Assembly: GCA_043816605.1 (NCBI GenBank)
Contig: JBDRHR010000173.1
Span: 1-48,895 of the forward strand
Reading direction: 5' to 3'
Origin: Nitrospirota bacterium
Lineage (GTDB): Bacteria > UBA9089 > CG2-30-40-21 > SBAY01
DNA: 48,895 bases
Made by a program: the position numbers and the translations under genes. Below are positions 776 through 36,573 of this stretch, in pieces. The notes beneath the pieces are model-generated. The model was not told the origin of the DNA. It searched no databases and saw only the letters and a program-made list of their open reading frames with translations. The first letter of the stretch is position 1; the number at the start of each line of letters is the position of its first letter.

Positions 776-1174
776 ATGGATATTAAAGAACAAATTGGAA
801 CAAAAATTAGGGAATTAAGGAAAAATATAGGACTGACTCAAGAGGAATTAGCAGAAAGGGTAGATTTAGAATCTGGATATATCAGTCAAATTGAACGAGG
901 GTGGAAATATCCTTCTTTAAGAACATTAGTTAAAATTGCTCAGGTATTAGAAGTAAATGTTGATTATTTTGTCAAAACTGATACAGATATTAACCTACAC
1001 CAGGAGATGAAAGCCTTTAGCAAATCAGATTTATTAATTAAAAAATTAGTTTTGCTCCTTAAAGATAAAGACCCGGAGGATATAAAATTTATCATTACTT
1101 TAACTAAGAGATTTTTAGCTCGGGTCTATAAATATTCTGGGGGAAGAAAAGAGGAAAAGAGGGACACTCTTTGA
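776..1174 (+). CDS. XRE-family helix-turn-helix transcriptional regulator
   Basis: N-terminal HTH_3 signature IGTKIRELRKNIGLTQEELAERVDLESGYISQIERG..SLRTLVKIAQVLEV. 132 aa. Confidence 0.85.
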   Translation: MDIKEQIGTKIRELRKNIGLTQEELAERVDLESGYISQIERGWKYPSLRTLVKIAQVLEVNVDYFVKTDTDINLHQEMKAFSKSDLLIKKLVLLLKDKDPEDIKFIITLTKRFLARVYKYSGGRKEEKRDTL

Positions 1175-1221: not shown

Positions 1222-4200
1222 TTATCTCGTAATAGCCATCTTACTTATCTTTTGCATTGTCTTACCGTTATAACTAACCGTTACCCGATAGAGGTAGATG
1301 CCACTGGCGATATTTTTATCTTCCCACACTACATCGGCTATTCCGGACACAGGATCTACCTCTTCCATTCCCCACTTTTCCCAGATTAATTCACCCACAA
1401 TATTATATACCGTTACCTGCATATCTACGCTAACCCCGTTAAGGAGGTTGGTTTTAGCACAGATAGTCGTTTTCCCGGAATGTGGATTAGGGTAGTTGAA
1501 TATCTCCAGAGACTCTAATGTTTGGGTAATCTCCGGGGAGGCGGGAGGTTTTGGTTTTACTATTGGACCCGACTTCTTTAATGTTGGAGTCCCTATGGCT
1601 AAAACTCCCATTGTATCTTTAGCCTCAAAGTAATATTTGTAATTATCACTTATAACTCCTAATTTTAAAATATAGTAATAAATCTTACCGGTTTTATAAT
1701 CAGTTCCAGATTCAACTACCATTTTGACATTTCCTACCGGGGTTTCATTATCAAGAATATAGATTTTAGGATAATTCGTTCCCGGTGCATCACCATCCTC
1801 ATCTTTATATCGGACTTTGAATGTAAAATATGTTTCATTAACAATCCCTTCCTCAGGGTCTAATCCATCCGTTTGAAAATTAGGACTACCTGCCCACTCC
1901 AATTTTGGGGCATGACTAACCTTTGGACCGGTTTTAAGTACGGTAAAAGGTCCCACTGCCACTGCCCCTTTAATATCTTTAGCATAGAATTTATACTTAT
2001 AAGTACCCGTAGCATTAAGGGTTATGGTTGTGGAGTAGGTAGCTCCTTTATAATGGCTTCCATTGAGATAAGTCATACTATAAGTTCCCAGTCCATAAGG
2101 TTTATTACCCTTAGAAATAACAACGGCTGGATACCCGGACGCCGGTAGATTAACATTCATATCCAAATAGGCTACATGGAAGGTAAAAATTCCAGGGGAT
2201 GCGGCATCAGGATTTACTCCATCGCTATAATATTCCTTCTCTCTAGTGGAAAATAAAAGAGGTGGATAATTTTGTCCCTCTACCTTTGGTCCAAAATGAA
2301 GTGTAGTCGGTTCACCTATTGCCAGCACATTATTACTATTTTTAGCCTCAAAATAATAACTATACGCCTCACTGGCATAAGGAAGGGAAATCTCATGAAA
2401 AGAATAGACCACCCCGGCAGAATAATTGCCTTCAGTTTCCTTTGTGAGGATATATCCAGGATAGATGAGCACACCTCCTATATAGATATAAATTTTTGGA
2501 TACCCGCCTGCCGGTGGAAGATTATTTACATCCGTATAGAGTATTTTATAAGTAAATTTATTCGTTGTTTGACCCGGGTCAGGATTAACCCCATCTGTCC
2601 CAAACCCCTCTTGATTTACCCAGTTTAAGGAAGGGGCATCATTTACCGATGGACCAGGTTTAACTGAGGTAATAACCGCAGACTGATACATATCCTTTGC
2701 CTCAAATTTATAGCTATATGTCCCTTCCGGAAAATTAGTTGAAAAGGTATATAACTTCCCATCGGTATAGGTTCCATCATTTAGGACAACTGGATTCATA
2801 AGAATAGGACTACCATTTGTCAGGGTTCCTCGAGAATAGATATATAATTTAGGGTAGCCTGTATGAGGTGGATGGTTATCTTTATCCACATATTTAATTC
2901 GGTAGGTATAGGTAATCTTTGTTGTCCCGTAATCAGGCTCAATACCATCATTGGTATATCCCAACTCACCTGTCCAGTTCAGGGTAGGTGGATTATTTAC
3001 AGGAGGTCCATCCATAAGTTGAATTTTACCAACCGCATCCATACCAGGCAAATCTTTCGCTATAAATTTATATTTGTAATCAAACCTGCTCTCCGCAAAT
3101 TGGAGCGGGTAATAATATAATTTACCATCTGTGTAAGTAATATCTTCTTCAGATACCTCACCCATGGCATAAGTACCTAAGACGGTCGTCCCTTTATAAA
3201 TAATTACCTTTGGATACCCATTTGCGGGAGAATTGTTATTATTATCAATATAATTTATTTTGTAAGTAAATATGGTTGCTGAATCACCTGAATCAGGATT
3301 GATACCATCGGTCCCAAACCCCGGCTCATTTACCCAGTCCAAAATAGGTGCATCGGTTACTACCGGCTTATTTTTAATGATGGTTGGTGTTCCCATAGCC
3401 TGAAGTTGGTAGCTATCCTTTGCCTCAAAGAAATACGAATAATTCCCAACCGGTAAATTAATTTCATATTTGTATATGCCGGCATTAATCGGGGTCATAC
3501 TAAACGAGCCGACAGGTGTCTGCCCCAGGTAAATATATAGTTTTGGAAAATTTTGAGCCGGCGGGTCATTATCCGCATCCTCGTATTTGACTTGATAGGT
3601 GAATTTAGTCCCTTGAGTCCCAAGTTCAGGGTCTATGCCGTCTTCAATAAATCCGGGGTTGCCACTCCAGGATAATACCGGTGTTCTACTTACATCAGGG
3701 GCATCCTTCTGCAAGGTAGGTGTTCCAGATGCCTTGATGCCATAAACATCCTCTGCCTCAAAGAAATAGGTGTAGTCCTTACCTGTGGCTTGAAATGTTT
3801 GCACAAAATAATAATCCTTACCATCCATACAGTTCTGGTCTGCTTGAGTTACCTCAAACATAGCAAAAGGACTTCCTGAAATTTCGGCACCTGCTTTGAG
3901 AATATGTAACTTTGGGAAACCTTGATATGGCAGGTCATTATTTGCATCAGAGTAGGTAACTTTATAGGTAAATTTAGTCCCCCAGGTGCCAAGTTCCGGG
4001 TGAAGACCATCGGTGCCATAATTTCCCTCCTGCACCCAATTTAATATCGGGGCATCTGTAACCACTGGTGCATTTGGTCTTAAGGTTATCGGTTCTTCCC
4101 CCACGGCAAAAACGCCAATAAAATCCTTTGCCTCAAAGAAATACTCATAATCCTTTCCTGTGGCAATTAGAACACGGGGATATTCATACTCCTTACCATC

Positions 4201-7200
4201 GGCATAGTTTGTATCCGCAGGAAGGGTTTCCAGCATCGGGAAAGGACTACCGTCGAGCTCTTTATTCGCCTTCAAGATATGTACCATAGGATACCCTGCT
4301 GCAGGTGGCTCGGTGTCGGTATAAAGGACTCGATAGACAAAAGAAGTCGTGGCAGACCCTGCCTCGGGGTTAAGTCCATCGGTGATATAACCGGGTTTAT
4401 TTACCCAACTTAACACCGGGGCTAAGGTTACCTTAGGTCCCTCTTTAATAAATGTTGGTGTCCCTGTAGCAGGCATCCCACGATTACTTTCTGCCGCAAA
4501 CCTATAAGTGTAAGTGCCAACTCCGAGGGATATAGAGCAGGAATATAATTTACCGTCCTCATAATTTGTATCCTGTGGATTCTCTTGAGCCATAGTCCAT
4601 GGGCTACCCTGTATTTCAGCCCCAACTTTAAAGATGTGTAGTCGTGGTGAATTTGTGCCCGGCGGGTCATTAGTAGAATTTATATACGAGATGCGATAGA
4701 CAAAACTCGTTCCCTGTGTCCCAAATTCAGGTTCTAACCCATCGCTCATATAACCAGGAGAGTCCTTTGCCCAGCTAAGTATTGGCTCACCGGTTACATT
4801 TGGTCCTGTAATAGCTGTTGTAGGCGTGCCTGCGGCATAAATTCCATAAGCATCCTTTGCCTCGAAATAATAGGAATACTCATTACTTGCGGCTATTAAC
4901 TTCCTGAAGAGTTGATATTCTTTGCCATCCTGATAATTTTTATCGTTCACATTCACCGGTTCAAGCGGGATTGGGCTGTCTTCTGTCTCAACCCCTTTTT
5001 TGAGGATATGTACCCTCGGATACCCTGCTGTAGGTGGGTCATTTTCATCATCCTGATATTTAACCTTATAAGTAAAGATTGTTTCAGCAGCTATACCGGT
5101 TTCCGGGTCTAACCCATCTGATTGAAAACTACCTGTCCCAATCCATTGTAATTGAGGTGGACTCCCAATCCTTGGACCTTGTTTAAAGGAAGTTGGTGCA
5201 GAGGGGAGACAATCCTCCTTTTTTATATCCTTTGCCTCAAACTTATACTTATAAATCCCATACTCTATTAGAGTAATCTTGTAACGATACAATGCCCCAG
5301 TAGAAAAACTACCATATTGCTTTTCCATCGTATAGGTGCCTATAAAACTTGTATCTTTATAAATATGAAGAAGTGGATAACCGAAATAAGGCTCATCACC
5401 ATTCAAATCTTTATAGACGATTAAATAAGTAAATTCTGTTCCTGATGTGCCAGCCTCAGGTTCTAATCCATCAGATATATATCCCGGCTGATTAGCCCAC
5501 ATCAGCATAGGTCTTGAGTTCTGGCCTGTAACCTCAGGTCCTGATTGAATAGCGGTCGGTGTCCCTTTTGCTACTTTACCTTGTCCATTTTTGGCTATAA
5601 AATAATAAGTGTATTTTGTGCTTGCTACAGGTAATCTTGTCGGATTTGTGTAATAGATTACCCCTTTCTGATAATCAGAGCCTGCTACTGGACGCATCAG
5701 AACACCATTTGGGTAGAAAGGAGATATTGCCCCCTCGATTAATATATATAGTTTGGGATAACCGGATGCCGGTGGAGAATTATTAACATCACTATATTTA
5801 ACTTTATAAGTAAAAAAGCCGGAAGTGATACCGATGTCCGGGTCAACCCCATCGTTTAAGTAAGGTTCCTGTCCAATCCATTCTAAAACAGGCTCACCAA
5901 TAAATAATGGTCCTATCTTTTTGGTTATTGGCTCCCCGGTAGCAAAAAAACCGGTTGTGTCCTGAGCGATGAATTGATATGAATAAGTGCCTGGCGAAGG
6001 TAGATATTTAGCCAGTTTATATTGTTTTCCATCGGTATAAGTAATATCCTGTGGATTTACCTCATCCATCTTAAATGGACTACCGGTAATTTTCACATTA
6101 TTAAGAAAAATATCCACCTTAGGAAAACCCTCTAAAGGCGGGTCGTTATCAAAGTCTGTATAATTAATTTTGTAAATAAATTCAGTGCCGATTGTACCCA
6201 GTGAAGGACTCACACCACTATTTGCATAATCTCCTTCCCCTACCCAACTCAAAGTAGGCACACTATTTACCTTGGGACCATCTAATACATTTACATGCTC
6301 TTCTATAGCCTGACTACCCTCGATATCCTCTGCCTCAAATCTATAACTATAACTGCCGGTTTCAACAAACACAATGGATGATTTATATAATTTACCGGTA
6401 ATAAAAGAACCTCCAGGATTAACGAGCGTCATAGCAAAAGGACTACCATTAATGCTACTGCCTGCCTTGAAAATATGTACCTTTGGCGAGCTGGTGCCGG
6501 GTGGGTCGTCATCTATATCCTTATACTTAATTAGAAAGGTAAATTCAGTTCCCGTAGTGCCTACATTTGGTTCAACTCCATCTTCAGTATAACCTGCCGA
6601 ACCTGCCCAGATTAAAACAGGGAAATTATTCACGATAGGTCCTGTCTGCCACTGCGTAGGGGTTCCAATAGCCTGAACACCATAAGTATCCTTTGCCTCA
6701 AATTTATAGGTATAGTTTATACTGTGGGACAGACAGGTAGAAAACTTATATTCTTTACCATCAATATAATTATTATCTTCAGGGGAAGCCTCATCCATCT
6801 TAAACGGGCTTCCTGAAATATTGATGCTATTCCACAGGATATAAACCCTTGGATATAAAGGTCCAGGTGGGTTATTATCCATATCCTTATATTCCACCTT
6901 GTAGGTGAATAGTGTATCCTTGGTGCCTGTGTCTGGTTTAACCCCGCAGGTTTGATATTCCAGTGTCCAGTTTAATATTGGGGCATTACTTACCCTTGGA
7001 CCAGATTGTTCCCACTGAGTAGGTTGACCTGTTGCCTTTGCCGCATAAATATTTTCAGCCTCAAATTTATAGGTATAACTTCCAGAGGGAAGTGAAAAGG
7101 CTATCCGATATATTTTACCATCCGTATAATAATCATCATAAATATCCTCTTCCTGCATCCCAAAGGAAATATAAGGTTGCTGATTTAAAAAGATATTGAC

Positions 7201-10200
7201 CTTTGGTGACCCTGTCCCTGGTGGGAAGTTACCTCGGTCAGTATAGATTATTCTGAATGTGAATTTAGTTCCTGGCGTGCCGACCTCAGGATTTAATCCA
7301 TCCATGATAAATTCATCCACACCTACCCAATATAAAGATGGGATAGAAACAACAGTCGGTCCTGAATGAAAAATAGTCGGACTACCGAAGGCATAAAGAC
7401 CACTTGTATTCTTAGCCTCAAATCGATAGGTGTATGTTCCCGGGAGGTTAAGTGGGTAAAAATACTCATAAACTTTACCATCAACATATTCTTTATCTTG
7501 AGGGTTTGCCTCAATCATCTGGGTATATAATACATCCTGACTGCCTTTCTGGATTTGTAATTTAGGAAATCCTGCAAGGGGGGGGTCGTTATCCTCATCA
7601 AAATAAATTATTCGATAAGTAAAGGTAGTGCCAACAATCCCAATCTCCGGCTCCAACCCATCATCAATAAATCCTTGTTGCCCAAACCACTCTAATTTTG
7701 GACTACCGCTAACCTTTGGTCCTGGCATAAAAGAAGAAGGAGGAAATAACACCTCTTCTCCTTCTTCGTCTTTGACTTTGAATTGGTATTGATACTGGTT
7801 TTTTTCCGGGAGGGAGGTAGAATAGGAATAAAGTGCCCCTTGAAGAAAATTCCCGGAAACAAAATTCATGGTTACGGTAGCCATCAAAACCATATTCTTG
7901 TAAATGTAAACTAATGGATAGTTATTGTCAGGATGGTCACCATTTATATCCTGATAGCGTATTTGATAAATAAATTTAGTTCCTAATGTGCCAACATCAG
8001 GGTCTATACCGTCTGAGATAAAACCTGAATTAGCCGACCAGAATAGTGTTGGTTTAAAATTAGGTCCATCAATTAGAGGTCCATCGTGTTCTAAAGTAGG
8101 TTCACCTATGGCGGTTATTTCTTTGATATTTTTTGCCTCAAAATAATAGGCATAGTGTTTAGAACCTATTGGAAATGTAGTTGGGAAGCTATAAGTAACC
8201 CCTGTCTTATAATCATTACCCTCTTTAATATACATCCATTGACCACCCGGAGATTGAGGTGCACCACCGCGTAGGATATACACCTTTGGATATTGATTTG
8301 CCGGGGGATTACCATCAGGGTCTATATAGAGCACCTTATAGGTAAAAGTAGTGTTCTGGATTGTGCCTGTGCCTGGATTAATCCCGTCATTTGTGTATTC
8401 TTGTGTGCCTGCCCATTTTAATATTGGTGAGCCAATTATTGAAGGTCCATTTTTAAGGAAAGTAGGTGCACCGGTTGCTTTATTATTAGAGGCGTCGTAA
8501 CCCTCGAAAAAGTATGAGTATGTGCCTATCTCTTGAAATGATATTGAATAGGTGAATAATTTCCCATCTTTATAATCGGTATCTTGCGGGTTAACCTCTT
8601 CTAATACAAATGCGCCAATTTCGTTGCCTCCCTTTAAGATATGAACTACGGGATAGTTTGGTAGTGGCGGCTCTCCATCCACATCCGTATAATTAACTCG
8701 ATAGGTAAAGGTTGTTTGAATATCACCTTGTTCAGGTTCAAGCCCGTCATTGACATAACCTTGCTCATAAGTCCAGGTCAGGGTAGGGATACTTCTAACT
8801 ACAGGAGATGAAGATATATTCGTTGGACTACCCATAGCCTTAATCATGAGATAATCATACGCCTCAAATTGATAGGTAAATGAACCTGCCTGGTCGAAAA
8901 TCTTAGTTAGTGTATATCCTTTACCATCATTATAGAGGACATCACCTGGATTTATTGGCTGCATCGGACAAGGGCTACCGGAGATTTCTTTGCCCTCTTT
9001 AAATATATGCACCACAGGATAGTAACTATGAGGAGGGTCGTTGTCAACATCTTTATAGATTATTTTATAAGTAAATGCTGTTAGATTCACGGTTCCTACC
9101 TCTGGCTCTAATCCATCAGATATATACCCCGGCTCATTGAGCCATTCCAGAATAGGGGCATTACTGACTATGGGTCCGGATTTCAAAGAGGTAAAGCACT
9201 GCAAATCTTTTTTATCCCTTGCCTCAAATTTATACTGATAAATACCGGTTGTTTTAACGGTATAAGTTGTACCATAAATAGCCCCTGAGGTAACTGACCC
9301 ATAAAAATAACTCATCGTCTTTGTTCCAATAAACACACCACTTTTATAGACATAGAGTATGGGGTATCCTTCCTTAGGTAGGTCCGCATTCAAATCGGAA
9401 TATTTAATCCGATAATTAAATGCTGTGTCAAAATTACCCGTCTCAGGTTCAAGACCATCTGAGACATACCCTTGATTACCAACCCAGAGGAGTCTTGGCG
9501 GATAGTTTAGACCAGTAACTAAGGGACCTGGTTGACTAATCGTAGGCGTGCCTATGGCAAAAACACTGAGTGTATTTTTAGCCTCAAAATAATAGGAATA
9601 ATAGTCGCTGGCAAAGATAAGGGGTAATTTAGCGACATAAATCATTCCAGTCACATAATCATTTCCACTTTCTTTAGACATTTTTGTCTGACTTACTACC
9701 TCTCCACCTCTGAGCACATACAATTTTGGATAATTTGAATCAGGTGGGATATTATCCTCATCGCTATATCGGACTTTATAAGTAAATATCGTCGTATTAA
9801 TGCCTGTGTTTGGCTCAATTCCCTCAGTTTTATATCCCTCTGCATCTACCCACTTTAACACAGGCGCCTTTGCCACGATAGGTCCTGTTTTAAGTTGAGT
9901 TGGCTCACCGGTTGCTATAAAATCATCTCTATCTTTAGCCTCAAATTGGTAATAGTATTTCCCCGCCATATTTAATGGAATTGAGAAGGTATAAATCTTC
10001 CCATCTATCCAATCAGTATCTTGAAGATTTCCCTCTTCCATAGAAAATGGGCTATTTTGTATCTGGTTAGTGCCTAAGTAAATATATACCCTCGGATACC
10101 CTTGTGCCGGTGGGATATTTTGAGGATGGGTAAAAGTTATTCGATAGGTAAATGTAGCTCCGAGATTACCTGCTTCCAGTTCAAGTCCATCTATTTTATA

Positions 10201-13200
10201 ACCTTGCTCATTAGTCCAGGTTAAAACAGGTATTTTCCCAACCCAGGGTCCAGAAGATGGTGTTGTCGGTGTTCCTTTAGCTTTAACCCCAAGGGTATCT
10301 TCTGCTTCAAAACAGTAGGTGTATGTTCCCGGCAAAGAAAAGGTTTTAAGATATTTGTAGAGTTTACCATCTGTATATTCCGTATCATTAGGGACAACCG
10401 CTTGCATTGGATAGGGACTACCACTTATCTCATTACCTGATTTAAGGATATGCAGTTTGGGGAAACCATTAGCCGGTGGAAAATTAGTCTCATGAAAATA
10501 TGCCACTTTGTAGGTAAATATCGTTTCATCCGAACCACGCTCCGGCTCTAAACCATCCTCAATACATCCTTCTTCGCCTGCCCACTTGAGTATTGGAGGT
10601 GGATGTGGCGTGGTAGTTATGGTAGCAATGGCAAGTACTGACTCATTACCCGCATCATCTATGGTTTTTAAGCCAAGGTAATAAAGGGTGGTTGGTTCTA
10701 ATCCGGTAATGGTAACCTGTCGAAAACTGCCTGCGACCGCAGATATGGGTTCATTATTTATTTGTTTGGCAGTAACCCAGGTATCCTCATTTATTACCCC
10801 CGTAGAATAGCGAATATCATACATCGTTGGCGTGCCTAATCGGTTATCATCACCTGCAGATAGCCAGAATAAAGTAGTTGAAATTGCGGTAGTGTTGGTC
10901 GCGGTCAGGGTCGTCGTTCCAGGTGGGATAATATCACGCGATAACTCCATGTATGGTGCCGGATTCCCATTGCTCGGGTGTATGGTTTGTGTATCTGTGC
11001 CTTCAAGTGCACCCTCGGCAAATAAATAAAGATTATCCTGAGCCGCAGTATAATCATCAAAAAATGATTGCAAATCAGCAGTTCTAAAATTAACCAGATT
11101 ATAAAGCCACTGTCCTTCTGTAACCAGAACTGATGCCCATGAAGAGGTGCCCAAATCACCTTGTTTATCCACATCTTGTAATTGAATATAGACAATTGCC
11201 CCGTCTGCATATTCTAATTTACCTTGTTTATATACCTCTCCCTGAACTAAACGGTTTTCAGGTTTTGGAATAATAGATGCCCCTGTTCTAACCGTATAAT
11301 GAAAGCCAGTATTGGTATCAAGAACACCACCACGGAGAACATCATAGTAATATAAGGTATTTACATTTAATCCGACAATGGTTACATGATGGGTATCGTC
11401 TATATAACCTATTCCCCTGTCGTCAAAGTTAGACTGATTTAAGGAATTAGGATTAGTGCCGTAATTGACCGTGCCTGACTCTTGTTTAGTTGATGTCCAG
11501 GAGATAGTGAACTGGGAGTCGGTGATATTCGTCTCACAATATGAGATACCGCTAACTATGGGTCCTTGTTGAATAACGGTAGCCGTGCCTGAGGCATCGG
11601 TAGCAAAAAATCGGTAAGAATATGTGCCTGGAGTAGAAAGAAATCGGGAAAATTTATATACTGCACCCGTAGCATAAGTCCCTTGGACATACGACATAGA
11701 ATGTGTTCCGACAGACTGCCCATCTTTATAAATAATTACTCCTGGCGAACTTGTCCCGGGTGCATCATTATCTAAATCAATATATTTCACCTTGAAGGTG
11801 AACGCCATATCAATATTACCGGAGTCAGGATAAACACCATCTTTGAGATACTCCCCTTCACCTACCCAGTCGAGGGTAGGGTTATGTTTCATTTCAGGTG
11901 TAGTTGAGCCTTCAACCACCCCGGACAACTCCGACATATTCCACACCTCGTCAATTGTCTTTAATCCAAAATAGTAAGTAGATGCCGGACTTAACCCTTC
12001 AACAGTAAGTTCCTGCCAATTGCCGGCAGATAATGGTACAGGTTCTAATTTAATTTCTTGCGTCATTCCCCAGAGCGTTTCTGTCCAAGAAAACTGGGCA
12101 TATCTAAAGTCATAAATTGAGGCTATGCCAAGATTTTTATCATCTCCAGTTGCTTGCCACTTTAATGTGATTGAACCAACCCCTGCCTTTATTACTTGTA
12201 AGGTAGTAATTGACGCAGGGGCAATTACATCCCGGCAAAGCTCTATGGGTAATGCGGGCGAGTCATTTGCTGTAAGAACTATTTCACTTCCAATTCCTTC
12301 CTCAACACCCTGAACAAATAAATAAAGTTCATCCGTCGTAGAGGAATAGTTAAATTGTGAGGCTAAATCTATGGTTCTAAAATTGACTAAATCCGCCATC
12401 CAGTAACCATTCTCCTGGACTAATGCCGAGGCTGGGGCTGAGGTAAGCAGACTACCCTGTCCATCATTATCCTTTAATTCAAGATAGACAAGGGCATCCT
12501 TCGCCACGGATTGTCCACCTTGTTTGAGTACCGCTCCATAAACTATGTCACTACCGGAGCTAATGAATGACTTGCCTGTCCGGAGGGTATAATGATTGCC
12601 GGAATTATCATCAGTAATCCCACCTGAGACGACATCAAAATAATAGACTGTTTCCGGGCTCAACCCCTTAACCGTTACATGGTGTGTTCTACCGCTAAAT
12701 CCTGCCCCACGGTCATCATCCCATTTCATATTTACTGCTTGTGCGTTTATCCCATATTTCACATAGCCTGTTACCGATGATGAAGTTATCCATGAAACCG
12801 TAAATTGGCTATCTGTTTGATTGGTTACACGCACACCGTTATCTATATCCGCAACTATTGGTCCTTTAGTTAAGGATGTAGGTTCACCTTCTGCCCCCTG
12901 AGTATAGAATTGATAACTATACTCCCCGTTTTCCTGAAAAACCTTTGAGTAGGTATAAATTGCCCCAGTAGTAAAAGAGCCTTTGACATAAGTCGTCGAG
13001 TAAGTTCCAAGAGATGTTGCCCCTTTATAAAGGATGATTTTCGGCTCTCCTTTTGGCGGCGGAAGATTCTGCGGGTGGGTGTACTTGACCATATAGACAA
13101 AGTTAGTGCCTGAGGTGCCCAAGTCTAATCTCAAACTATCTTTGACAAAATTATTCTCACCTGTCCAGGATAACATTGAATTAGGTGCCGGTGAGGTTTT

Positions 13201-14208
13201 AGCAGAAACAACATTGGATAAGTCCGACCAATTACCCGCCTTATCACGGGTTTTAATTGCCAGATAGTAAAGTGTATTGGGTGAAAGCGTTGGGACTTGA
13301 AATTCCTGTTGAGTTCCGGCAAGTAAAGGTGCGGGTTCTCCTTGAACCTGGAAGGCATTCCCAAAATTACCTTCAGTTATTGGTGATAATGACCATCGAA
13401 TATCGTATAAAAATGCCTGTCCCTGATTTCCATCATCGCCTGGTGTAATCCATTTTAAGGTAATTGAATTAGAGGTAACTTGTTTGATTTCAAGGGTATT
13501 AATACTTGAGGGTTTGATATGGTCGGTAGAAAGGATTATATCCGGTGCGGGTGAGTCCTGGTTAGTATCCACGGTTAAGGTAGCAGTCCCATCTTTTGAG
13601 CCCTGGGCAAATAAAACAAGGTTATCTCCACCATTGACAGAATAGTCAAAAAATCCACTCAGGTCGTGCGTCCTCAGGTTAACCAGGTTTTCTGACCAAT
13701 AACCATTAGCGTCAACCAGAACAGACCAAACCGCAGATTCCCCAGGACTACCGTTTGAATCCGCATTACTAAGTTTAAAATAAACAATTGTTCCTGTAGC
13801 AAAAGTTTGGGCATCTGATTTAAATACCTTCCCGTAGGCATAATCAATTCCGGAAGGTTTAATATTTGCTCCAGTCATACACTGATAATACACACCATTA
13901 TTGTTATCAACTATAGCTCCTGAGACTAACTCAAAATAATATAAGGTTTCAGGGCTTAATCCGGTGATATTTACATAATGTGTGTCGTCAACCGTGTTTT
14001 GACCACGCACATCATAAGCGGTTTGCCCTAAGGCAGGGGTTTGTCCATAATGGACCGCACAGGTTTCCTGAACATCTGTTATCCAGGACAGAGTAATCTG
14101 GCTATCCGTAACATTTGTTGTTCGTATCTCCTTAGGAATACTTGCCTCCGTTATGCAGGTTATTCCAAAGGTAATTATAAATATGCCGGCAAAAAAACTT
14201 TTCTTCAT
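1222..14208 (-). CDS. giant secreted modular surface protein (4,328 aa) with FN3-type domains, a ~120-aa repeat array and a T9SS-type C-terminal domain
   Basis: Uninterrupted 12,987-nt ORF. AGGAAG Shine-Dalgarno about 6 nt before the ATG. Signal peptide MKKSFFAGIFIITFGITCITEA. Coherent repeated domain architecture throughout. C-terminus matches the Por secretion tail pattern. Confidence 0.95.
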   Translation of the reverse strand: MKKSFFAGIFIITFGITCITEASIPKEIRTTNVTDSQITLSWITDVQETCAVHYGQTPALGQTAYDVRGQNTVDDTHYVNITGLSPETLYYFELVSGAIVDNNNGVYYQCMTGANIKPSGIDYAYGKVFKSDAQTFATGTIVYFKLSNADSNGSPGESAVWSVLVDANGYWSENLVNLRTHDLSGFFDYSVNGGDNLVLFAQGSKDGTATLTVDTNQDSPAPDIILSTDHIKPSSINTLEIKQVTSNSITLKWITPGDDGNQGQAFLYDIRWSLSPITEGNFGNAFQVQGEPAPLLAGTQQEFQVPTLSPNTLYYLAIKTRDKAGNWSDLSNVVSAKTSPAPNSMLSWTGENNFVKDSLRLDLGTSGTNFVYMVKYTHPQNLPPPKGEPKIILYKGATSLGTYSTTYVKGSFTTGAIYTYSKVFQENGEYSYQFYTQGAEGEPTSLTKGPIVADIDNGVRVTNQTDSQFTVSWITSSSVTGYVKYGINAQAVNMKWDDDRGAGFSGRTHHVTVKGLSPETVYYFDVVSGGITDDNSGNHYTLRTGKSFISSGSDIVYGAVLKQGGQSVAKDALVYLELKDNDGQGSLLTSAPASALVQENGYWMADLVNFRTIDLASQFNYSSTTDELYLFVQGVEEGIGSEIVLTANDSPALPIELCRDVIAPASITTLQVIKAGVGSITLKWQATGDDKNLGIASIYDFRYAQFSWTETLWGMTQEIKLEPVPLSAGNWQELTVEGLSPASTYYFGLKTIDEVWNMSELSGVVEGSTTPEMKHNPTLDWVGEGEYLKDGVYPDSGNIDMAFTFKVKYIDLDNDAPGTSSPGVIIYKDGQSVGTHSMSYVQGTYATGAVYKFSRFLSTPGTYSYRFFATDASGTATVIQQGPIVSGISYCETNITDSQFTISWTSTKQESGTVNYGTNPNSLNQSNFDDRGIGYIDDTHHVTIVGLNVNTLYYYDVLRGGVLDTNTGFHYTVRTGASIIPKPENRLVQGEVYKQGKLEYADGAIVYIQLQDVDKQGDLGTSSWASVLVTEGQWLYNLVNFRTADLQSFFDDYTAAQDNLYLFAEGALEGTDTQTIHPSNGNPAPYMELSRDIIPPGTTTLTATNTTAISTTLFWLSAGDDNRLGTPTMYDIRYSTGVINEDTWVTAKQINNEPISAVAGSFRQVTITGLEPTTLYYLGLKTIDDAGNESVLAIATITTTPHPPPILKWAGEEGCIEDGLEPERGSDETIFTYKVAYFHETNFPPANGFPKLHILKSGNEISGSPYPMQAVVPNDTEYTDGKLYKYLKTFSLPGTYTYCFEAEDTLGVKAKGTPTTPSSGPWVGKIPVLTWTNEQGYKIDGLELEAGNLGATFTYRITFTHPQNIPPAQGYPRVYIYLGTNQIQNSPFSMEEGNLQDTDWIDGKIYTFSIPLNMAGKYYYQFEAKDRDDFIATGEPTQLKTGPIVAKAPVLKWVDAEGYKTEGIEPNTGINTTIFTYKVRYSDEDNIPPDSNYPKLYVLRGGEVVSQTKMSKESGNDYVTGMIYVAKLPLIFASDYYSYYFEAKNTLSVFAIGTPTISQPGPLVTGLNYPPRLLWVGNQGYVSDGLEPETGNFDTAFNYRIKYSDLNADLPKEGYPILYVYKSGVFIGTKTMSYFYGSVTSGAIYGTTYTVKTTGIYQYKFEARDKKDLQCFTSLKSGPIVSNAPILEWLNEPGYISDGLEPEVGTVNLTAFTYKIIYKDVDNDPPHSYYPVVHIFKEGKEISGSPCPMQPINPGDVLYNDGKGYTLTKIFDQAGSFTYQFEAYDYLMIKAMGSPTNISSSPVVRSIPTLTWTYEQGYVNDGLEPEQGDIQTTFTYRVNYTDVDGEPPLPNYPVVHILKGGNEIGAFVLEEVNPQDTDYKDGKLFTYSISFQEIGTYSYFFEGYDASNNKATGAPTFLKNGPSIIGSPILKWAGTQEYTNDGINPGTGTIQNTTFTYKVLYIDPDGNPPANQYPKVYILRGGAPQSPGGQWMYIKEGNDYKTGVTYSFPTTFPIGSKHYAYYFEAKNIKEITAIGEPTLEHDGPLIDGPNFKPTLFWSANSGFISDGIDPDVGTLGTKFIYQIRYQDINGDHPDNNYPLVYIYKNMVLMATVTMNFVSGNFLQGALYSYSTSLPEKNQYQYQFKVKDEEGEEVLFPPSSFMPGPKVSGSPKLEWFGQQGFIDDGLEPEIGIVGTTFTYRIIYFDEDNDPPLAGFPKLQIQKGSQDVLYTQMIEANPQDKEYVDGKVYEYFYPLNLPGTYTYRFEAKNTSGLYAFGSPTIFHSGPTVVSIPSLYWVGVDEFIMDGLNPEVGTPGTKFTFRIIYTDRGNFPPGTGSPKVNIFLNQQPYISFGMQEEDIYDDYYTDGKIYRIAFSLPSGSYTYKFEAENIYAAKATGQPTQWEQSGPRVSNAPILNWTLEYQTCGVKPDTGTKDTLFTYKVEYKDMDNNPPGPLYPRVYILWNSINISGSPFKMDEASPEDNNYIDGKEYKFSTCLSHSINYTYKFEAKDTYGVQAIGTPTQWQTGPIVNNFPVLIWAGSAGYTEDGVEPNVGTTGTEFTFLIKYKDIDDDPPGTSSPKVHIFKAGSSINGSPFAMTLVNPGGSFITGKLYKSSIVFVETGSYSYRFEAEDIEGSQAIEEHVNVLDGPKVNSVPTLSWVGEGDYANSGVSPSLGTIGTEFIYKINYTDFDNDPPLEGFPKVDIFLNNVKITGSPFKMDEVNPQDITYTDGKQYKLAKYLPSPGTYSYQFIAQDTTGFFATGEPITKKIGPLFIGEPVLEWIGQEPYLNDGVDPDIGITSGFFTYKVKYSDVNNSPPASGYPKLYILIEGAISPFYPNGVLMRPVAGSDYQKGVIYYTNPTRLPVASTKYTYYFIAKNGQGKVAKGTPTAIQSGPEVTGQNSRPMLMWANQPGYISDGLEPEAGTSGTEFTYLIVYKDLNGDEPYFGYPLLHIYKDTSFIGTYTMEKQYGSFSTGALYRYKITLIEYGIYKYKFEAKDIKKEDCLPSAPTSFKQGPRIGSPPQLQWIGTGSFQSDGLDPETGIAAETIFTYKVKYQDDENDPPTAGYPRVHILKKGVETEDSPIPLEPVNVNDKNYQDGKEYQLFRKLIAASNEYSYYFEAKDAYGIYAAGTPTTAITGPNVTGEPILSWAKDSPGYMSDGLEPEFGTQGTSFVYRISYINSTNDPPGTNSPRLHIFKVGAEIQGSPWTMAQENPQDTNYEDGKLYSCSISLGVGTYTYRFAAESNRGMPATGTPTFIKEGPKVTLAPVLSWVNKPGYITDGLNPEAGSATTSFVYRVLYTDTEPPAAGYPMVHILKANKELDGSPFPMLETLPADTNYADGKEYEYPRVLIATGKDYEYFFEAKDFIGVFAVGEEPITLRPNAPVVTDAPILNWVQEGNYGTDGLHPELGTWGTKFTYKVTYSDANNDLPYQGFPKLHILKAGAEISGSPFAMFEVTQADQNCMDGKDYYFVQTFQATGKDYTYFFEAEDVYGIKASGTPTLQKDAPDVSRTPVLSWSGNPGFIEDGIDPELGTQGTKFTYQVKYEDADNDPPAQNFPKLYIYLGQTPVGSFSMTPINAGIYKYEINLPVGNYSYFFEAKDSYQLQAMGTPTIIKNKPVVTDAPILDWVNEPGFGTDGINPDSGDSATIFTYKINYIDNNNNSPANGYPKVIIYKGTTVLGTYAMGEVSEEDITYTDGKLYYYPLQFAESRFDYKYKFIAKDLPGMDAVGKIQLMDGPPVNNPPTLNWTGELGYTNDGIEPDYGTTKITYTYRIKYVDKDNHPPHTGYPKLYIYSRGTLTNGSPILMNPVVLNDGTYTDGKLYTFSTNFPEGTYSYKFEAKDMYQSAVITSVKPGPSVNDAPSLNWVNQEGFGTDGVNPDPGQTTNKFTYKILYTDVNNLPPAGGYPKIYIYIGGVLIYPGYILTKETEGNYSAGVVYSFHEISLPYASEAYSYYFEAKNSNNVLAIGEPTTLHFGPKVEGQNYPPLLFSTREKEYYSDGVNPDAASPGIFTFHVAYLDMNVNLPASGYPAVVISKGNKPYGLGTYSMTYLNGSHYKGATYSTTITLNATGTYKYKFYAKDIKGAVAVGPFTVLKTGPKVSHAPKLEWAGSPNFQTDGLDPEEGIVNETYFTFKVRYKDEDGDAPGTNYPKIYILDNETPVGNVKMVVESGTDYKTGKIYYYILKLGVISDNYKYYFEAKDTMGVLAIGTPTLKKSGPIVKPKPPASPEITQTLESLEIFNYPNPHSGKTTICAKTNLLNGVSVDMQVTVYNIVGELIWEKWGMEEVDPVSGIADVVWEDKNIASGIYLYRVTVSYNGKTMQKISKMAITR
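1225..1509 (-). other. T9SS type-A-like C-terminal sorting domain (Por secretion tail / FlgD-Ig-like) of the giant protein
   Basis: The last ~95 aa read ..FNYPNPHSGKTTI..VTVYNIVGELIW..WEDKNIASGIYLYRVTVSYNGKTMQKISKMAITR. This fits the YPNPF..IYN..G..V...SGIY.YR....K..K consensus as remembered for TIGR04183-type tails. Confidence 0.7.
1510..10602 (-). repeat. coding tandem array: 25 diverged copies of a ~120-aa domain
   Basis: Recurrent pattern P.L.W.G..GY..DG..P..G...T.FTY.V.Y.D.D.DPP...YP.V.I......GSP..M......D..Y.DGK.Y......G.Y.Y.FEAKD..G..A.G.PT, counted 25 times from about residue 1203 to about residue 4235. Confidence 0.85.
10603..14118 (-). repeat. coding super-repeats: three ~430-aa units
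   Basis: Units start at about residue 31 (TNVTDSQITLSW), 461 (VTNQTDSQFTVSW) and 892 (ETNITDSQFTISW). Each contains a purple-acid-phosphatase-N/FN3-like module, a beta-sandwich-like module, an FN3 module (..GDD.N.G....YDIRYS..) and one ~120-aa domain. Confidence 0.8.
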
Positions 14209-14220
14209 AAGTTCTTCCTG

Positions 14221-14257: not shown

Positions 14258-14286
14258 ATTATACCACATTTTTCTCGTTTTGGCAA
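14258..14286 (-). promoter_or_regulatory. sigma70 promoter of the giant gene
   Basis: Minus strand reads TTGCCA, a 17-nt spacer, then TGG-TATAAT (extended -10). Located about 45-50 nt upstream of the ATG. Confidence 0.6.
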
Positions 14287-19914: not shown

Positions 19915-20847
19915 TTACTGGGCATCAAACCTAAAGGTAATAGAAAGTCGGTGGGTGTTACCTAATTCATCATAGGGGACAAAGGCATAGTCTATTTGGT
20001 AGTGTTTAATCGTGAAACCAAACCCACCGGTAATTCCGGTACCTAAGTCTTTAAATACCTGTGAATTAAATCCACCTCGCAGGGCGAGCAACTGCTTAAA
20101 CCATAATTCCATGCCAAGATTCATTTTCCAGTCATTATCTGTTGGTTTAGTTAAATCACAGGTGATAGTCAACGGTTGGACTCCAAGTCGATAGGCACTA
20201 CCTAATTTAAGTGTTAATGGTAATTTATCCCCTTCACTTGAAAATTTTATTCTCGGACCTACATTTTGGAGTACCGTAGATAAAGTTAAACCATCAATAG
20301 GAGTTTGATACAATTGTCCTAAGTCAATTGCAAATGAAGATGCCTCCTCGTTCTCTATTTTTTGAACAATACCCTTGATAGTCATTCCAATTGATATAGC
20401 CTCGGTTATAGCTGAGGCATAGGTAAAAGCAAAGGCAGTATCCCGGACTGAGAAATTACCCGTACTTTCGGGTTGTGACTTCACATCACCATCTTTATAC
20501 CCGGGAATATTACCTACCCCTAAATGGATGACACTAAAACCAATTGCCTTTTTCCTTGAGGTAGGCACCCCAAAGCCGAGAAATCCATGCCCCACCCCTT
20601 CAAACCAATCATTGTACATCATGGATATTTCAGGTTTGGTAATCTGGACAAGACCCGCTGGATTCCAGTAGACCGCGGTAATATCATCGGCTAATGCCGA
20701 GAAAGCCTCACCCATAGCTACGGCTTTAGCCCCCACACCTATCTTTAAAAATGGCGCACCGGCAGTTCCAGGAGATGTCTTTGCCCAACAATTACTTACT
20801 ATTGAAAACATCACTAAGCAATTTATTAAAACTAATTTATGCCTCAT
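19915..20847 (-). CDS. PorV/PorQ-family outer-membrane beta-barrel protein
   Basis: Motif GAPFLKIGVGAKAVAMGEAFSALADDITAVYWNPAGL and a beta-barrel-like C-terminus ending ..RLSITFRF. Start placed at the ATG at 20847 (MRHKLVLINCLVMF.. signal peptide with GGGAGA Shine-Dalgarno). The longer ORF start at 20871 lies inside a repeat hairpin. Confidence 0.7.
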   Translation of the reverse strand: MRHKLVLINCLVMFSIVSNCWAKTSPGTAGAPFLKIGVGAKAVAMGEAFSALADDITAVYWNPAGLVQITKPEISMMYNDWFEGVGHGFLGFGVPTSRKKAIGFSVIHLGVGNIPGYKDGDVKSQPESTGNFSVRDTAFAFTYASAITEAISIGMTIKGIVQKIENEEASSFAIDLGQLYQTPIDGLTLSTVLQNVGPRIKFSSEGDKLPLTLKLGSAYRLGVQPLTITCDLTKPTDNDWKMNLGMELWFKQLLALRGGFNSQVFKDLGTGITGGFGFTIKHYQIDYAFVPYDELGNTHRLSITFRFDAQ

Positions 20848-20864
20848 CTCTTTCTCCCTTACCG

Positions 20865-21009
20865 TAAGCATTTAGCTATCAGGTATCATGGTTCGACAGG
20901 ACTTCAGCGTGAGCTCAGTCGAACGCTCACCATGACAAAATGTCACCCTGAGTTTGTCCGAAGGGTGATGGTTTTTGCTGACTGCTGATACCTGATTACT
21001 GACTGCTTA
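20865..21009. repeat. compound hairpin with a GC-richer REP-like core
   Basis: Outer arm taagcatttagctatcaggtatca pairs with tgatacctgattactgactgcttaa. Inner stems are ggttcgac..gtcgaac, catgg..ccatg and tcaccct..agggtga. Confidence 0.65.
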
Positions 21010-29432: not shown

Positions 29433-30938
29433 TTATTTAGTATGTACATCATACGCATTTAAAAACTCATTCCATTGAGTATCGACAGCAAAGTTAGTAT
29501 TGGCATAGTCAGGAGAAGAACCGGTTGTTGGAAAATATATGGAAATCCCATGGGCCCCTGGATGTCCTGAATAATGAGCCTCGGCAATTACATCATTATT
29601 AATAGCATTGCCAAGGGCAAGAACCGCAGATTTAACTACCGGACTTGTAACTCTATTGTAAATTTCCTCGCCAAAATCATACAGGTCAGGATAACCCACA
29701 TCCTCTGTTGCTAATCGTGCCGCTTTAATATTAGCCCATTCTCCACAGGCTATCATAGCCATAGCAAAATTACTTACGGCGGTAGCTAAATTATCAAGGG
29801 CTAAGGTAGTATTTACCGCAGAGAATGTTACAAACGGCTCCACCCCAAGATAAGAATCAATGTAATGTTTAACCGTAATTGAGCCTAAAAAGGTAGCGTC
29901 CATACCTGGATTATTCACTAAATCTGTTAGAATCGTATCATAAGGCCAACCATCCCATGGTTCTACTTCTTGAGATGCCGCCAGTACCTCTGACGAAGCC
30001 TTTGTTTCATAAGCCACCTCAATCATCCCCATCAAGCAGGCATCATAACCTAAAAGATTCATCATCTTTCCGGACAAGGCAGTTTCTACCTCATCATAGT
30101 GTAAATAACTGTTATTTGTTACATCTATGCAGACAGTTTTTATAGCCTGTTCCTGCCCTAATTTTTTAAGTATGCCGCCTCCGTGATTCCAAAGGACTAA
30201 GGCATATTTATTCGCCGGATAATTTATCATTGCCCATTCAACAAAATCCTTTAAGGTTTGGTCATCTCCCATATCTGCCTCACCTATATCCGCTAAGGCA
30301 TTTGCCGGTGTAGGTGTCATATCCTGTTGAATATGAAATCTCTTGGTAGAAGTCCAATTCCCATACTGAGAATCATATCCTGGAATGCGGTCAAATTGAA
30401 CGACTATATTTACATTATCGCTTGAGCCAACCTGCGCCATTTCAAGGAAATCTTCAATCCCTGCATCCTCTAAGTCATTATCAGCCGCAATATAAACTAA
30501 ATATGTCCATTCTTTCTTAGCCATAGTACCAAAGGTAAAGGGTACAAAATCCTCACTTAAATTATCCCCGGTAATATTATTTAATAATCTTGCTCCCAGC
30601 TTGTAATTACCCTGTGGTTCAACTCCCCCAAATGTGTACTGGAATATATTTCCTTGAAAGTTAAAATTTGCGGGTAATTGAAACGCCGGTAGATTATAAA
30701 TTGAAATTAACCCACCGGGTGCAGGACATTCTACCCAATTCTTTATATCCACAACCTGAGTTTGGTTGGTGTTATTCCAAAGATGGACACCTTCTATTAA
30801 GGTATCCCCTATGTTATAACTTGCCTGATTAGTAGATATATCTATATGAGCAGGAGGTATAGACGCATTAACCCTTGATACTGCCATAAACCACCCTAAA
30901 GCTACTACCCCTAAAATAACACTTACTTTTTTAAACAT
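29433..30938 (-). CDS. secreted clostripain-family (C11, clan CD) cysteine peptidase
   Basis: EWTYLVYIAADNDLE block. Catalytic His context LVLWNHGGG. Catalytic Cys context LGYDACLMGM. Signal peptide present. Confidence 0.8.
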   Translation of the reverse strand: MFKKVSVILGVVALGWFMAVSRVNASIPPAHIDISTNQASYNIGDTLIEGVHLWNNTNQTQVVDIKNWVECPAPGGLISIYNLPAFQLPANFNFQGNIFQYTFGGVEPQGNYKLGARLLNNITGDNLSEDFVPFTFGTMAKKEWTYLVYIAADNDLEDAGIEDFLEMAQVGSSDNVNIVVQFDRIPGYDSQYGNWTSTKRFHIQQDMTPTPANALADIGEADMGDDQTLKDFVEWAMINYPANKYALVLWNHGGGILKKLGQEQAIKTVCIDVTNNSYLHYDEVETALSGKMMNLLGYDACLMGMIEVAYETKASSEVLAASQEVEPWDGWPYDTILTDLVNNPGMDATFLGSITVKHYIDSYLGVEPFVTFSAVNTTLALDNLATAVSNFAMAMIACGEWANIKAARLATEDVGYPDLYDFGEEIYNRVTSPVVKSAVLALGNAINNDVIAEAHYSGHPGAHGISIYFPTTGSSPDYANTNFAVDTQWNEFLNAYDVHTK

Positions 30939-35511: not shown

Positions 35512-36495
35512 CTAAAATTTCGCTGTGCAGGAAAGGAAATGAGTTCCCACTCCAGAACCATCTAATAAGGCATAATCTATATCATATTGGACACCAGGGA
35601 AAAGTTTTTTTAACTCTACTTCCCTAATTCCAAATCCTATGGTATGATAGTCTTTACTTAAAAGTCCAGCCCTAACCGCCATATTATCCGTACACCAGCG
35701 TTCAAAACCCACCTTAACCTTACTTTGTCCCTTACCTATCTTTGTAGTATATACATCCTCCAATTTATAGTTATAACACTCTATGGCAAAGATAGTCTTT
35801 TCATCCGGTCTCCAGGCAACGCCTGGTGTAATAATTTTTTCCCATACAAATTCACAAATAGGAGAATCTTCCCCGTATTTTACAACCGTCTCATTAAAAT
35901 TCTGGATTATAAGTCCGAGGGAAACCTCATTATTAATATGATACAAAATGCCTACATCATACTCTATAAAATTCGCCGTATACCCTGTTGATTCACATTC
36001 AGACCATTTAAAAGCCGTCTCTGTTCCTTTCAAAAGGGATGAACTTCTATTTCGCAGATTAACGCCTAAAGCCAGATTTTTAAACTGTCCTCCTCCATAA
36101 CCTCCCATAGCCAATCCAACCCATTCATCATCAATGGCATAAGGAGCAAAGTTATCTGTTTTCTTTTCCACCCATTGAAAGGCATTTTTAAAGTGAACAT
36201 AATTTACCCCTATTCCTCCAGAATCGCCTATTTTAGTTCCAGCCGCAAGCCACTCTTGATACTCCATAATATCCCGATTATTCATTGTCCGCATAATGGT
36301 AACCTCTGACTCTTTCATATTCCCTAATCCCGCAGGATTCCAATAGCAAGCATCAATTCCTTCAGCTACGGAAACGAATGCTCCACCCATGCCTAAAGCC
36401 CTGGCACCTACCCCTGGACCAAAGTAACTAAACCCCACTCTTTGCTCGAGTATTACTAAAGCAATTCCTATTACCAATATTATAAGTTTTTTCAT
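35512..36495 (-). CDS. PorV/PorQ-family outer-membrane beta-barrel protein (paralog A)
   Basis: GVGARALGMGGAFVSVAEGIDACYWNPAGLGNM. C-terminus ..HFLSCTAKF. Start placed at MKKLIILV (36495), which has GGGGGA 5 nt upstream. Confidence 0.7.
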   Translation of the reverse strand: MKKLIILVIGIALVILEQRVGFSYFGPGVGARALGMGGAFVSVAEGIDACYWNPAGLGNMKESEVTIMRTMNNRDIMEYQEWLAAGTKIGDSGGIGVNYVHFKNAFQWVEKKTDNFAPYAIDDEWVGLAMGGYGGGQFKNLALGVNLRNRSSSLLKGTETAFKWSECESTGYTANFIEYDVGILYHINNEVSLGLIIQNFNETVVKYGEDSPICEFVWEKIITPGVAWRPDEKTIFAIECYNYKLEDVYTTKIGKGQSKVKVGFERWCTDNMAVRAGLLSKDYHTIGFGIREVELKKLFPGVQYDIDYALLDGSGVGTHFLSCTAKF

Positions 36496-36573
36496 ATCAT
36501 CCCCCATCAAGTAATTGTCATCTAATTGTTATATGAAGTTTTACAACATTTTTTCTTTTGTTAGCCGTGTTTT

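Follow-up and report, generated by a model that had tools for sequence, protein, structure and literature searches.

Introduction

Fibrillar adhesin-like proteins have been defined by taking stalk, adhesive and anchor domains into account, with Por_Secre_tail among the listed anchors (Monzon et al., PMC8286594). We analysed a stretch of 48,895 nucleotides from an uncultured bacterium (contig JBDRHR010000173.1; this whole stretch is called the window below), in which a single open reading frame (ORF) on the minus strand, at 1222..14208, codes for a protein of 4,328 residues, referred to here as the giant protein. It resembles the fibrillar adhesins by a very long chain predicted to be extracellular, a tandem immunoglobulin (Ig)-like stalk, a differentiated region far from the anchor and a PF18962 anchor. 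It differs from them by the absence of a recognised adhesive domain, by a stalk module with no Pfam model and no place among the known stalk families, and by its host, an uncultured bacterium rather than a member of the Bacteroidota. Because no adhesive domain is recognised, the giant protein is adhesin-like yet not a demonstrable member of the group by this definition. We consider it probable that it is a non-enzymatic, fibrillar adhesin-like surface protein, exported by Sec and a type IX secretion system (T9SS) and anchored by its C-terminus.

Giant adhesins of the RTX type are exported by a type I secretion system through a C-terminal RTX signal and carry an N-terminal retention module. The giant protein is like these adhesins (LapA, SiiE and MpIBP types) in its size of hundreds of kDa and in the long Ig-like runs that would project a binding region, whereas its Sec signal and T9SS-type sorting domain would give it the opposite polarity. 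In terms of sorting, the giant protein resembles T9SS type A cargo, such as the gingipains and other proteins anchored to anionic lipopolysaccharide (A-LPS) (PMC9143113, PMC5445135). The Sec signal, the TIGR04183/PF18962 domain at the extreme C-terminus and a PorV-family gene nearby are common to both; the giant protein differs in that its scores are just above the cut-offs, its lineage lies outside the characterised T9SS hosts and the window shows PorV-like genes only. In Bacteroidota, cargo with a type A C-terminal domain is covalently anchored to A-LPS (PMC9143113).

The kind of protein is familiar, and the main interest is in two modules, R and M2, that are widespread though unnamed, and in a conserved punctuated stalk. 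Genes for giant surface proteins rank with the most poorly annotated ones of metagenomes. The value of the present analysis is incremental, since none of its results overturns current understanding.

Domain architecture of the giant protein

The ORF at 1222..14208 is a complete and intact coding sequence that begins with ATG and runs through 4,328 codons to a stop, and is by far the largest in the window. It is under purifying selection relative to its orthologs. The mature protein has a molecular mass of about 475 kDa and an isoelectric point of 4.7; Gly, Thr, Tyr and Pro are abundant in it. All coordinates given below for this gene and its upstream region are on the minus strand. An earlier note on this DNA had described one intact, uninterrupted ORF at this place, which was reproduced here with the strand assigned as minus.

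Residues 1-22 (14143..14208) form a predicted Sec signal peptide with cleavage at TEA|S. Read by eye, the N-terminus MKKSFFAGIFIITFGITCITEA|S has the layout of a signal peptide, as the earlier note had proposed, and both the n-h-c layout and the cleavage site xEA|SIPKE are retained in the orthologs. The signal peptide contains a cysteine, but as this residue is missing from the orthologs, we do not read it as part of a lipoprotein box.

The first 1,323 residues consist of three super-repeats, with a mutual identity of 40-43%, each built of the four modules M1, M2, M3 and one R. Their boundaries lie at residues 23-452 (12853..14139 for residues 24-452), 453-885 (11554..12852) and 886-1323 (10240..11553), in agreement with the three units of about 430 residues that had been noticed before. 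M1 is FN3-like and matches the Pfam family Pur_ac_phosph_N, M3 matches fn3, and M2, of about 115 residues, lies outside any Pfam or NCBIfam family. In the Pfam scan of the whole protein, Pur_ac_phosph_N scored 101.8 bits (cut-off 30) and fn3 73 bits (cut-off 25); scanned as single modules, M1 and M3 of the first super-repeat (M1a and M3a) reached 30.8 and 34.3 bits. The AlphaFold2 model of M1-M3 showed three tandem FN3/Ig-like sandwiches, with a predicted local distance difference test (pLDDT) score of 92.4. Foldseek, queried with this model, gave nothing but generic triple-FN3 chains at low template modelling (TM) scores, and no specific lead for M2. In the PDB, M2 has no relative by sequence, and its profile is not similar to that of R.

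The R copies were located with a repeat hidden Markov model (HMM) built from the giant protein itself. This HMM found 27 copies of a module of about 119 residues, at 107-146 bits each, of which two stand apart (residues 344-452 and 777-885) and 25 follow each other head to tail at residues 1205-4217 (R3-R27; 1558..10596). One R closes each super-repeat, and the one that closes super-repeat 3, R3, opens the array as well. The 25 tandem domains of about 120 residues claimed in the earlier note are thus recovered without a break, and 27 copies are counted in all. About 70% of the 475-kDa protein is made of R modules. The copies are 26-53% identical to each other in amino acid sequence, with a mean of 39%, and proximity brings no greater likeness (39.0% for adjacent copies vs 39.3% for distant ones). 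Tandem Repeats Finder reported no array in the gene and the longest exact internal repeat in the DNA is 23 nt; the earlier observation that the repeats have diverged at the nucleotide level holds up. Most of the residues conserved across the 27 copies are Pro, Gly or aromatic ones, of the kind expected in the core of a fold.

Clustering divided the array modules into three subtypes: C (R6, R10, R17 and R26), B (R5, R9, R16, R25 and R27) and A, which comprises all the others. Their order along the array is A2-BC-A2-BC-A5-BC-A7-BC-B. The linkers between R modules have 3 residues, except at the four B-to-C junctions, where alignment showed linkers of 6 residues (9499..9516, 8053-8070, 5512-5529 and 2263-2280) with the consensus (T/D/E)G(L/P/Q)N(Y/F/S)(P/K/R). 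These longer linkers are possible hinges in a rod.

The R module fold and its relative in a xanthanase

No match to R was obtained in Pfam, even at E = 10, and no NCBIfam model matched it either. With the 27 copies as the alignment, AlphaFold2 modelled R as an Ig-like sandwich with a mean pLDDT of 96.3. The R profile matched a single sequence in the PDB, that of the Paenibacillus glycoside hydrolase family 9 (GH9) xanthanase PspXan9 (6FHJ/6FHN), over residues 822-915 with E = 2e-10. In a Foldseek search the same protein came at the top (6FHJ, E = 7e-6, TM 0.72, root-mean-square deviation 1.9 A, 28% identity), and the other matches were generic Ig-like folds at E = 3e-3 or worse. The motifs YxDG+xY and GPxV are common to R and to the module at 822-915 of 6FHJ. 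The two modules are homologous domains by this profile match and this TM score; they differ in setting, as in PspXan9 a single accessory module stands beside a catalytic module and a CBM84 module, a carbohydrate-binding module (CBM), while the giant protein has 27 copies and no enzyme.

The related Cohnella xanthanase has the module order Ig-like, GH9, beta1, beta2, beta3, and its modules except the C-terminal one are reported to match those of the Paenibacillus xanthanase, which ends in CBM84 (PMC11002231). The segment of 6FHJ matched by R covers residues 822-915 of a chain of 1,009 residues and leaves 94 residues to the C-terminus; the counterpart of R in PspXan9 would therefore be the penultimate accessory module, 'beta3' in the nomenclature of PMC11002231. 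A published fusion construct, 'PspCBM84', begins at DGRVYT according to its primer sequences (PMC10049358). This start falls mid-way in the sandwich homologous to R, so the construct takes in about 40 residues of the preceding module, and because DGRVYT lies within the matched module, the published boundaries are ambiguous. In the Cohnella enzyme, removal of the extra N-terminal beta2-beta3 pair cut the activity 17-fold, and the binding of xanthan tracked with the C-terminal CBM (PMC11002231). A module of the beta3 type thus has an accessory role, which may or may not consist in binding.

Conservation of the array between lineages

An exhaustive profile search was run with R, and the N-terminal 452 residues were used as query for a genome collection. 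The best profile match, P0005 (4,089 aa), is encoded by one ORF on a contig of a metagenome-assembled genome (MAG) at NCBI and also on an independent Logan assembly, and a third ortholog, on JASEHU010000002.1 (L003), is open over all 3,787 codons covered. In all, three assemblies besides that of the window, from two related MAG lineages, show the same collinear architecture; one ortholog MAG bears the label 'Nitrospira sp.' in its own record.

In a global alignment the window protein and its ortholog on SBAY01000257.1 (L001) are 77% identical over 4,085 positions, with a ratio of nonsynonymous to synonymous substitution rates (dN/dS) of 0.25, and L001 and L003 are 83% identical with a dN/dS of 0.23. 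Each repeat is 66-85% identical to its positional counterpart in the ortholog, compared to 26-53% for any other copy. The array is therefore older than the split of the lineages, and each of its positions evolves separately. The sole indel of at least 4 residues between the window protein and the orthologs is the pair R13+R14 with its linkers (residues 2409-2649; 6262..6984), which is absent from both orthologs and brings the count of R copies to 27 vs 25. Both modules are in frame, have normal linkers and are not copies of the adjacent modules, and since their best paralog is less than 50% identical they do not represent a recent duplication.

No part of the protein is more conserved than super-repeat 1. 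Its modules are 83-91% identical to those of the ortholog with dN/dS values of 0.10-0.24, including 91% and 0.11 for M1a and 85% and 0.10 for R1, as compared with 71-79% and 0.18-0.30 elsewhere in the protein.

The earlier note had taken the array for an old and maintained one rather than an assembly artefact or a recent expansion, and the collinear orthologs, the positional identities and the dN/dS of about 0.25 all speak in favour of this view. It had also raised the possibility of homologs in which the gene is split, and had proposed a count of the copies in orthologs. The orthologs are single ORFs, and the copy number varies by one clean two-module indel only.

The arrays of periscope proteins consist of repeats that are near-identical in DNA and that expand and contract readily. 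As in the periscope proteins (PMC9704523), the array sets the length of the surface protein and the copy number differs between relatives. The giant protein differs from them by the divergence of its repeats in amino acid sequence and in DNA, to the extent given above, and by the conservation of each position between lineages, and for both reasons we do not count it as a periscope protein. The one-to-one conservation of 25 diverged repeats makes it a clean example of a stalk of fixed length, in contrast to variable 'periscope' arrays.

C-terminal sorting domain and candidate export components

Residues 4218-4328 (1225..1557) form a T9SS type A sorting domain, which is conserved in the ortholog. 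Scanned alone, this segment passed both curated cut-offs, with 28.0 bits for Por_Secre_tail PF18962 (cut-off 27) and 32.6 bits for TIGR04183 (cut-off 23), and the Por-secretion-tail-like C-terminus that had been suspected earlier is so confirmed; in the scan of the whole protein, Por_Secre_tail scored only 21.5 bits. The matches end 4-7 residues before the stop and contain the motifs YPNP...GIYLYRV...K..K. The type B model CHU_C gave 20.8 bits on the C-terminus, under its cut-off of 27, and the NCBIfam scan reported no type B model of the TIGR04131 type. The giant protein thus has the two sequence features of T9SS type A cargo, namely the C-terminal sorting domain and, as read by eye, the Sec signal.

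A gene of the PorV/PorQ family of outer-membrane proteins is located in another operon, at 19915..20871 on the minus strand, and codes for a candidate export component (NF033709, 207 bits, cut-off 90). The presence of this family and of an LptD-like gene in the window indicates that the organism has an outer membrane. Two more outer-membrane proteins, encoded at 35512-36510 (-) and 37228-38226 (-), have the start GxGGAFVxVADDxxxxYWNPAG typical of the PorV/PorQ family. Their NF033709 scores, of about 55 bits, stay below the cut-off of 90, and TraF_2 also matches one of the two. The PorV-like genes total three in 49 kb. The window also codes for a secreted M6 (InhA-like) metalloprotease, at 45273-47030 (-), and a C11 (clostripain-like) peptidase, at 29433-30938 (-), both with N-termini like signal peptides. 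As these two peptidases have no T9SS-type sorting domain, not every protein exported here uses the sorting signal of the giant protein.

A proposed role at the cell surface

We propose that the giant gene would be transcribed alone from a conserved promoter of the sigma-70 type and that its product would be exported by Sec through a cleavable signal peptide. A type IX-like system may then read the C-terminal type A sorting domain and carry the protein over the outer membrane with a shuttle of the PorV family, after which its C-terminus would hold it on the cell surface. The 25 Ig-like R modules with their 3-residue linkers would form a stiff rod, in which the four longer B-to-C linkers might act as hinges. 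With 36 sandwiches of about 4 nm each, such a rod would measure about 0.15 micrometres and would project three head cassettes, each composed of an FN3-like domain, an unassigned sandwich, an FN3 domain and an R module. The outermost copy of the head would be the likely ligand-binding tip, a polarity that is supported by the stronger constraint on the outermost super-repeat, and the ligand is probably an environmental polymer, a particle or another cell surface. Where the earlier note had placed adhesin, fibre and scaffold side by side, this proposal narrows the choice to a fibrillar adhesin-like protein, a role that we still infer; its statement that no catalytic motif is visible agrees with our scans, in which neither Pfam nor NCBIfam found an enzyme family in the giant protein.

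Several points weigh against the proposal. Besides the tail, Pfam and NCBIfam give only fn3 and Pur_ac_phosph_N, and no known adhesive domain. The product of 19915..20871 scores below the PorV and PorQ equivalog cut-offs, SprA/Sov, PorK-N and PorU are absent from the 48.9-kb window, and no other ORF in the window carries a T9SS-type sorting domain. Furthermore, the T9SS has been described as confined to the Bacteroidota and the Fibrobacteres-Chlorobi-Bacteroidetes (FCB) group (PMC5445135, PMC12398890). If the export route is right, the giant protein would add evidence for T9SS-type sorting in a candidate lineage.

The giant protein might instead be a released or loosely attached multivalent scaffold that binds polysaccharides, with R or M1-M2 acting as carbohydrate-binding modules rather than R as an inert stalk. 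R has a single relative of solved structure, which belongs to a GH9 xanthanase and is placed beside the xanthan-binding CBM84, and the 17-fold loss of activity in the Cohnella enzyme followed the removal of a pair that would include the counterpart of R, if this is beta3 (PMC11002231). Small secreted proteins, a few of them with dockerin repeats, also contain the M1-M2 cassette, and the richness in Tyr, Gly and Thr fits as well. However, the matched xanthanase module differs from the one shown to bind xanthan, and in Cohnella the binding goes with the C-terminal CBM (PMC11002231); the conserved residues of R are mostly those expected in a fold core, and Pfam found no CBM family, which leaves this explanation unlikely. 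A structural coat or spacer, of the kind of an S-layer-like or sheath fibre, would set the distance or the architecture of the envelope and not bind a specific target. Such a role would suit the very large size and acidic isoelectric point of the protein, its length, which is fixed between lineages save for the one two-module indel, and the purifying selection, which is uniform along the whole rod, but neither Pfam nor NCBIfam found an S-layer homology or lattice-forming domain, and the differentiated and more conserved distal head suggests a specific function of the tip. We regard a coat or spacer as rather improbable.

That the protein is an adhesin of gliding motility moved by the T9SS/Gld motor is suggested by its nature of giant repetitive T9SS cargo, like SprB (PMC9143113). 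SprB-type proteins nevertheless use type B C-terminal domains and PorP-like partners (PMC9143113), while here the type A models pass and CHU_C stays under its cut-off, and there is no gld or sprF-like gene adjacent to the giant gene, so that we give this reading very little credit. Finally, misassembly is a well-known hazard of long repeat arrays, and the window copy has two modules more than the two orthologs, which could point to chimeric or collapsed repeats or, if the gene were decaying, to a pseudogene that has stayed open. With a longest exact repeat of 23 nt and no array for Tandem Repeats Finder, short reads can resolve the region; the collinear architecture recurs in the three further assemblies, the dN/dS is 0.25, and the extra modules, in frame and with normal linkers, do not duplicate the modules beside them. 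An artefact or a decaying gene is hardly credible on these grounds. A fibrillar adhesin-like surface protein has the best support among these readings.

Candidate promoter and genomic context

A candidate promoter of the sigma-70 type is located at 14258..14286, with TTGCCA, a 17-nt spacer, TATAAT and a TG extension, which amounts to 11 matches out of 12 to the consensus. It lies within the 283-nt region upstream of the giant gene and is the best site in the 14 kb scanned. The whole scan was at the level of chance, with 44 sites found vs 43 expected, and because of this the consensus match alone is weak evidence for a promoter. The 40-nt block CATATTTCCyATTGCyAAAACrAGAAAAATGTGGTATAAT recurs ahead of the ortholog in L001, at a synonymous divergence of about 0.57. 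As this block is kept there despite different neighbour genes, a real promoter is favoured, in line with the near-consensus promoter of its own that the earlier note had attributed to the gene. The Shine-Dalgarno sequence of that note was also found again, as AGGAAG, 5 nt ahead of the ATG (14214..14219). No Rfam element was found near the giant gene.

In L003 (positions 1-102 of JASEHU010000002.1), the leader upstream of the ortholog ATG consists of about 9 copies of the 7-nt unit TAGAAGT, then of GGAGGAA repeats that reach the start codon at the contig end. Two AGAAGTA units are present in the leader of L001 and none in the window. These repeats are either a variable simple-sequence tract or a contig-end artefact.

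The window is otherwise ordinary chromosome, with genes for Der, a class IV aminotransferase, PurH, PFK, an aminoacyl-tRNA synthetase, tRNAs and glycosyltransferases. Relatives of the Der GTPase share 80-83% of its residues in the case of three entries; identity falls to 64-68% for a second group and to at most 54% beyond, and it is below 50% for the nearest named taxa, too low for Der to place the lineage. In the window, the giant gene has PIN-PhoH on its upstream side and, downstream, an XRE regulator in convergent orientation, while in L001 it has L35/L20 and RecQ as neighbours; since the neighbours differ between lineages, the giant gene stands alone. The gene for the XRE-family helix-turn-helix regulator, at 776-1174 (+), runs towards the giant gene from its 3' side. 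The two stop codons are 47 nt apart, with no terminator-like hairpin seen in this interval, and the regulator gene is not conserved beside the L001 ortholog. No other ORF of the window contains an R module.

A wider family of R and M1-M2 proteins

The R profile matched 3,183 representative proteins (clusters at 50% identity) at E <= 1e-3, 1,825 at 1e-10 and 708 at 1e-30, with up to about 50 R copies per protein (P0006, 6,784 aa). A word-indexed search with two repeats returned 4 proteins and understated the size of the family compared to the profile search. Almost none of the R-family proteins is named in the source records. Pfam scans of 32 members found R accompanied by CarboxypepD_reg (14), FlgD_ig (12), SdrD_B (10), Filamin (8), Kelch (3), SBBP (3) and BNR_4 (2), all of them non-catalytic binding or structural modules, and by no enzymes. 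A similar C-terminal sorting domain ends 53 of 154 relatives. For one relative, with M1, M2, Big_5 and R, NCBI gives the name 'T9SS type A sorting domain-containing protein [Candidatus Desantisbacteria bacterium]', and a search of the literature for Desantisbacteria and the T9SS yielded nothing relevant.

We suggest tentatively that R and the M1-M2 cassette are two undescribed and widespread families of extracellular domains of uncultured bacteria, and that the giant protein is a conserved 'punctuated rod', in which runs of subtype A are closed by a B-C pair and a hinge-like linker, giving a fixed reach of about 0.15 micrometres to a conserved binding tip, with T9SS-like export outside the phyla where the T9SS has been studied. 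If names were given to the R family, for which one overlooked crystal structure is available, and to the M1-M2 cassette, giant proteins now listed as 'hypothetical' would be annotated by the thousands.

The M1-M2 pair also forms small secreted proteins. Six of these (P0156, P0160, P0163, P0164, P0165 and P0170) share a C-terminal tail, Y-LP(L/F/V)-(V/I/T)-x-(K/Q/D/E), which looks like an undescribed sorting or anchoring signal, and dockerin-like DxDGDG...VDIM repeats are present in P0159, P0160 and P0168. An ORF of 373 aa at 3968-5089 (+) of NJBF01000094.1, a contig labelled Candidatus Heimdallarchaeota archaeon B3_Heim, is 36% identical to residues 307-452 of the window protein, which include R1; this suggests either a mis-binned bacterial contig or a transfer of the module.

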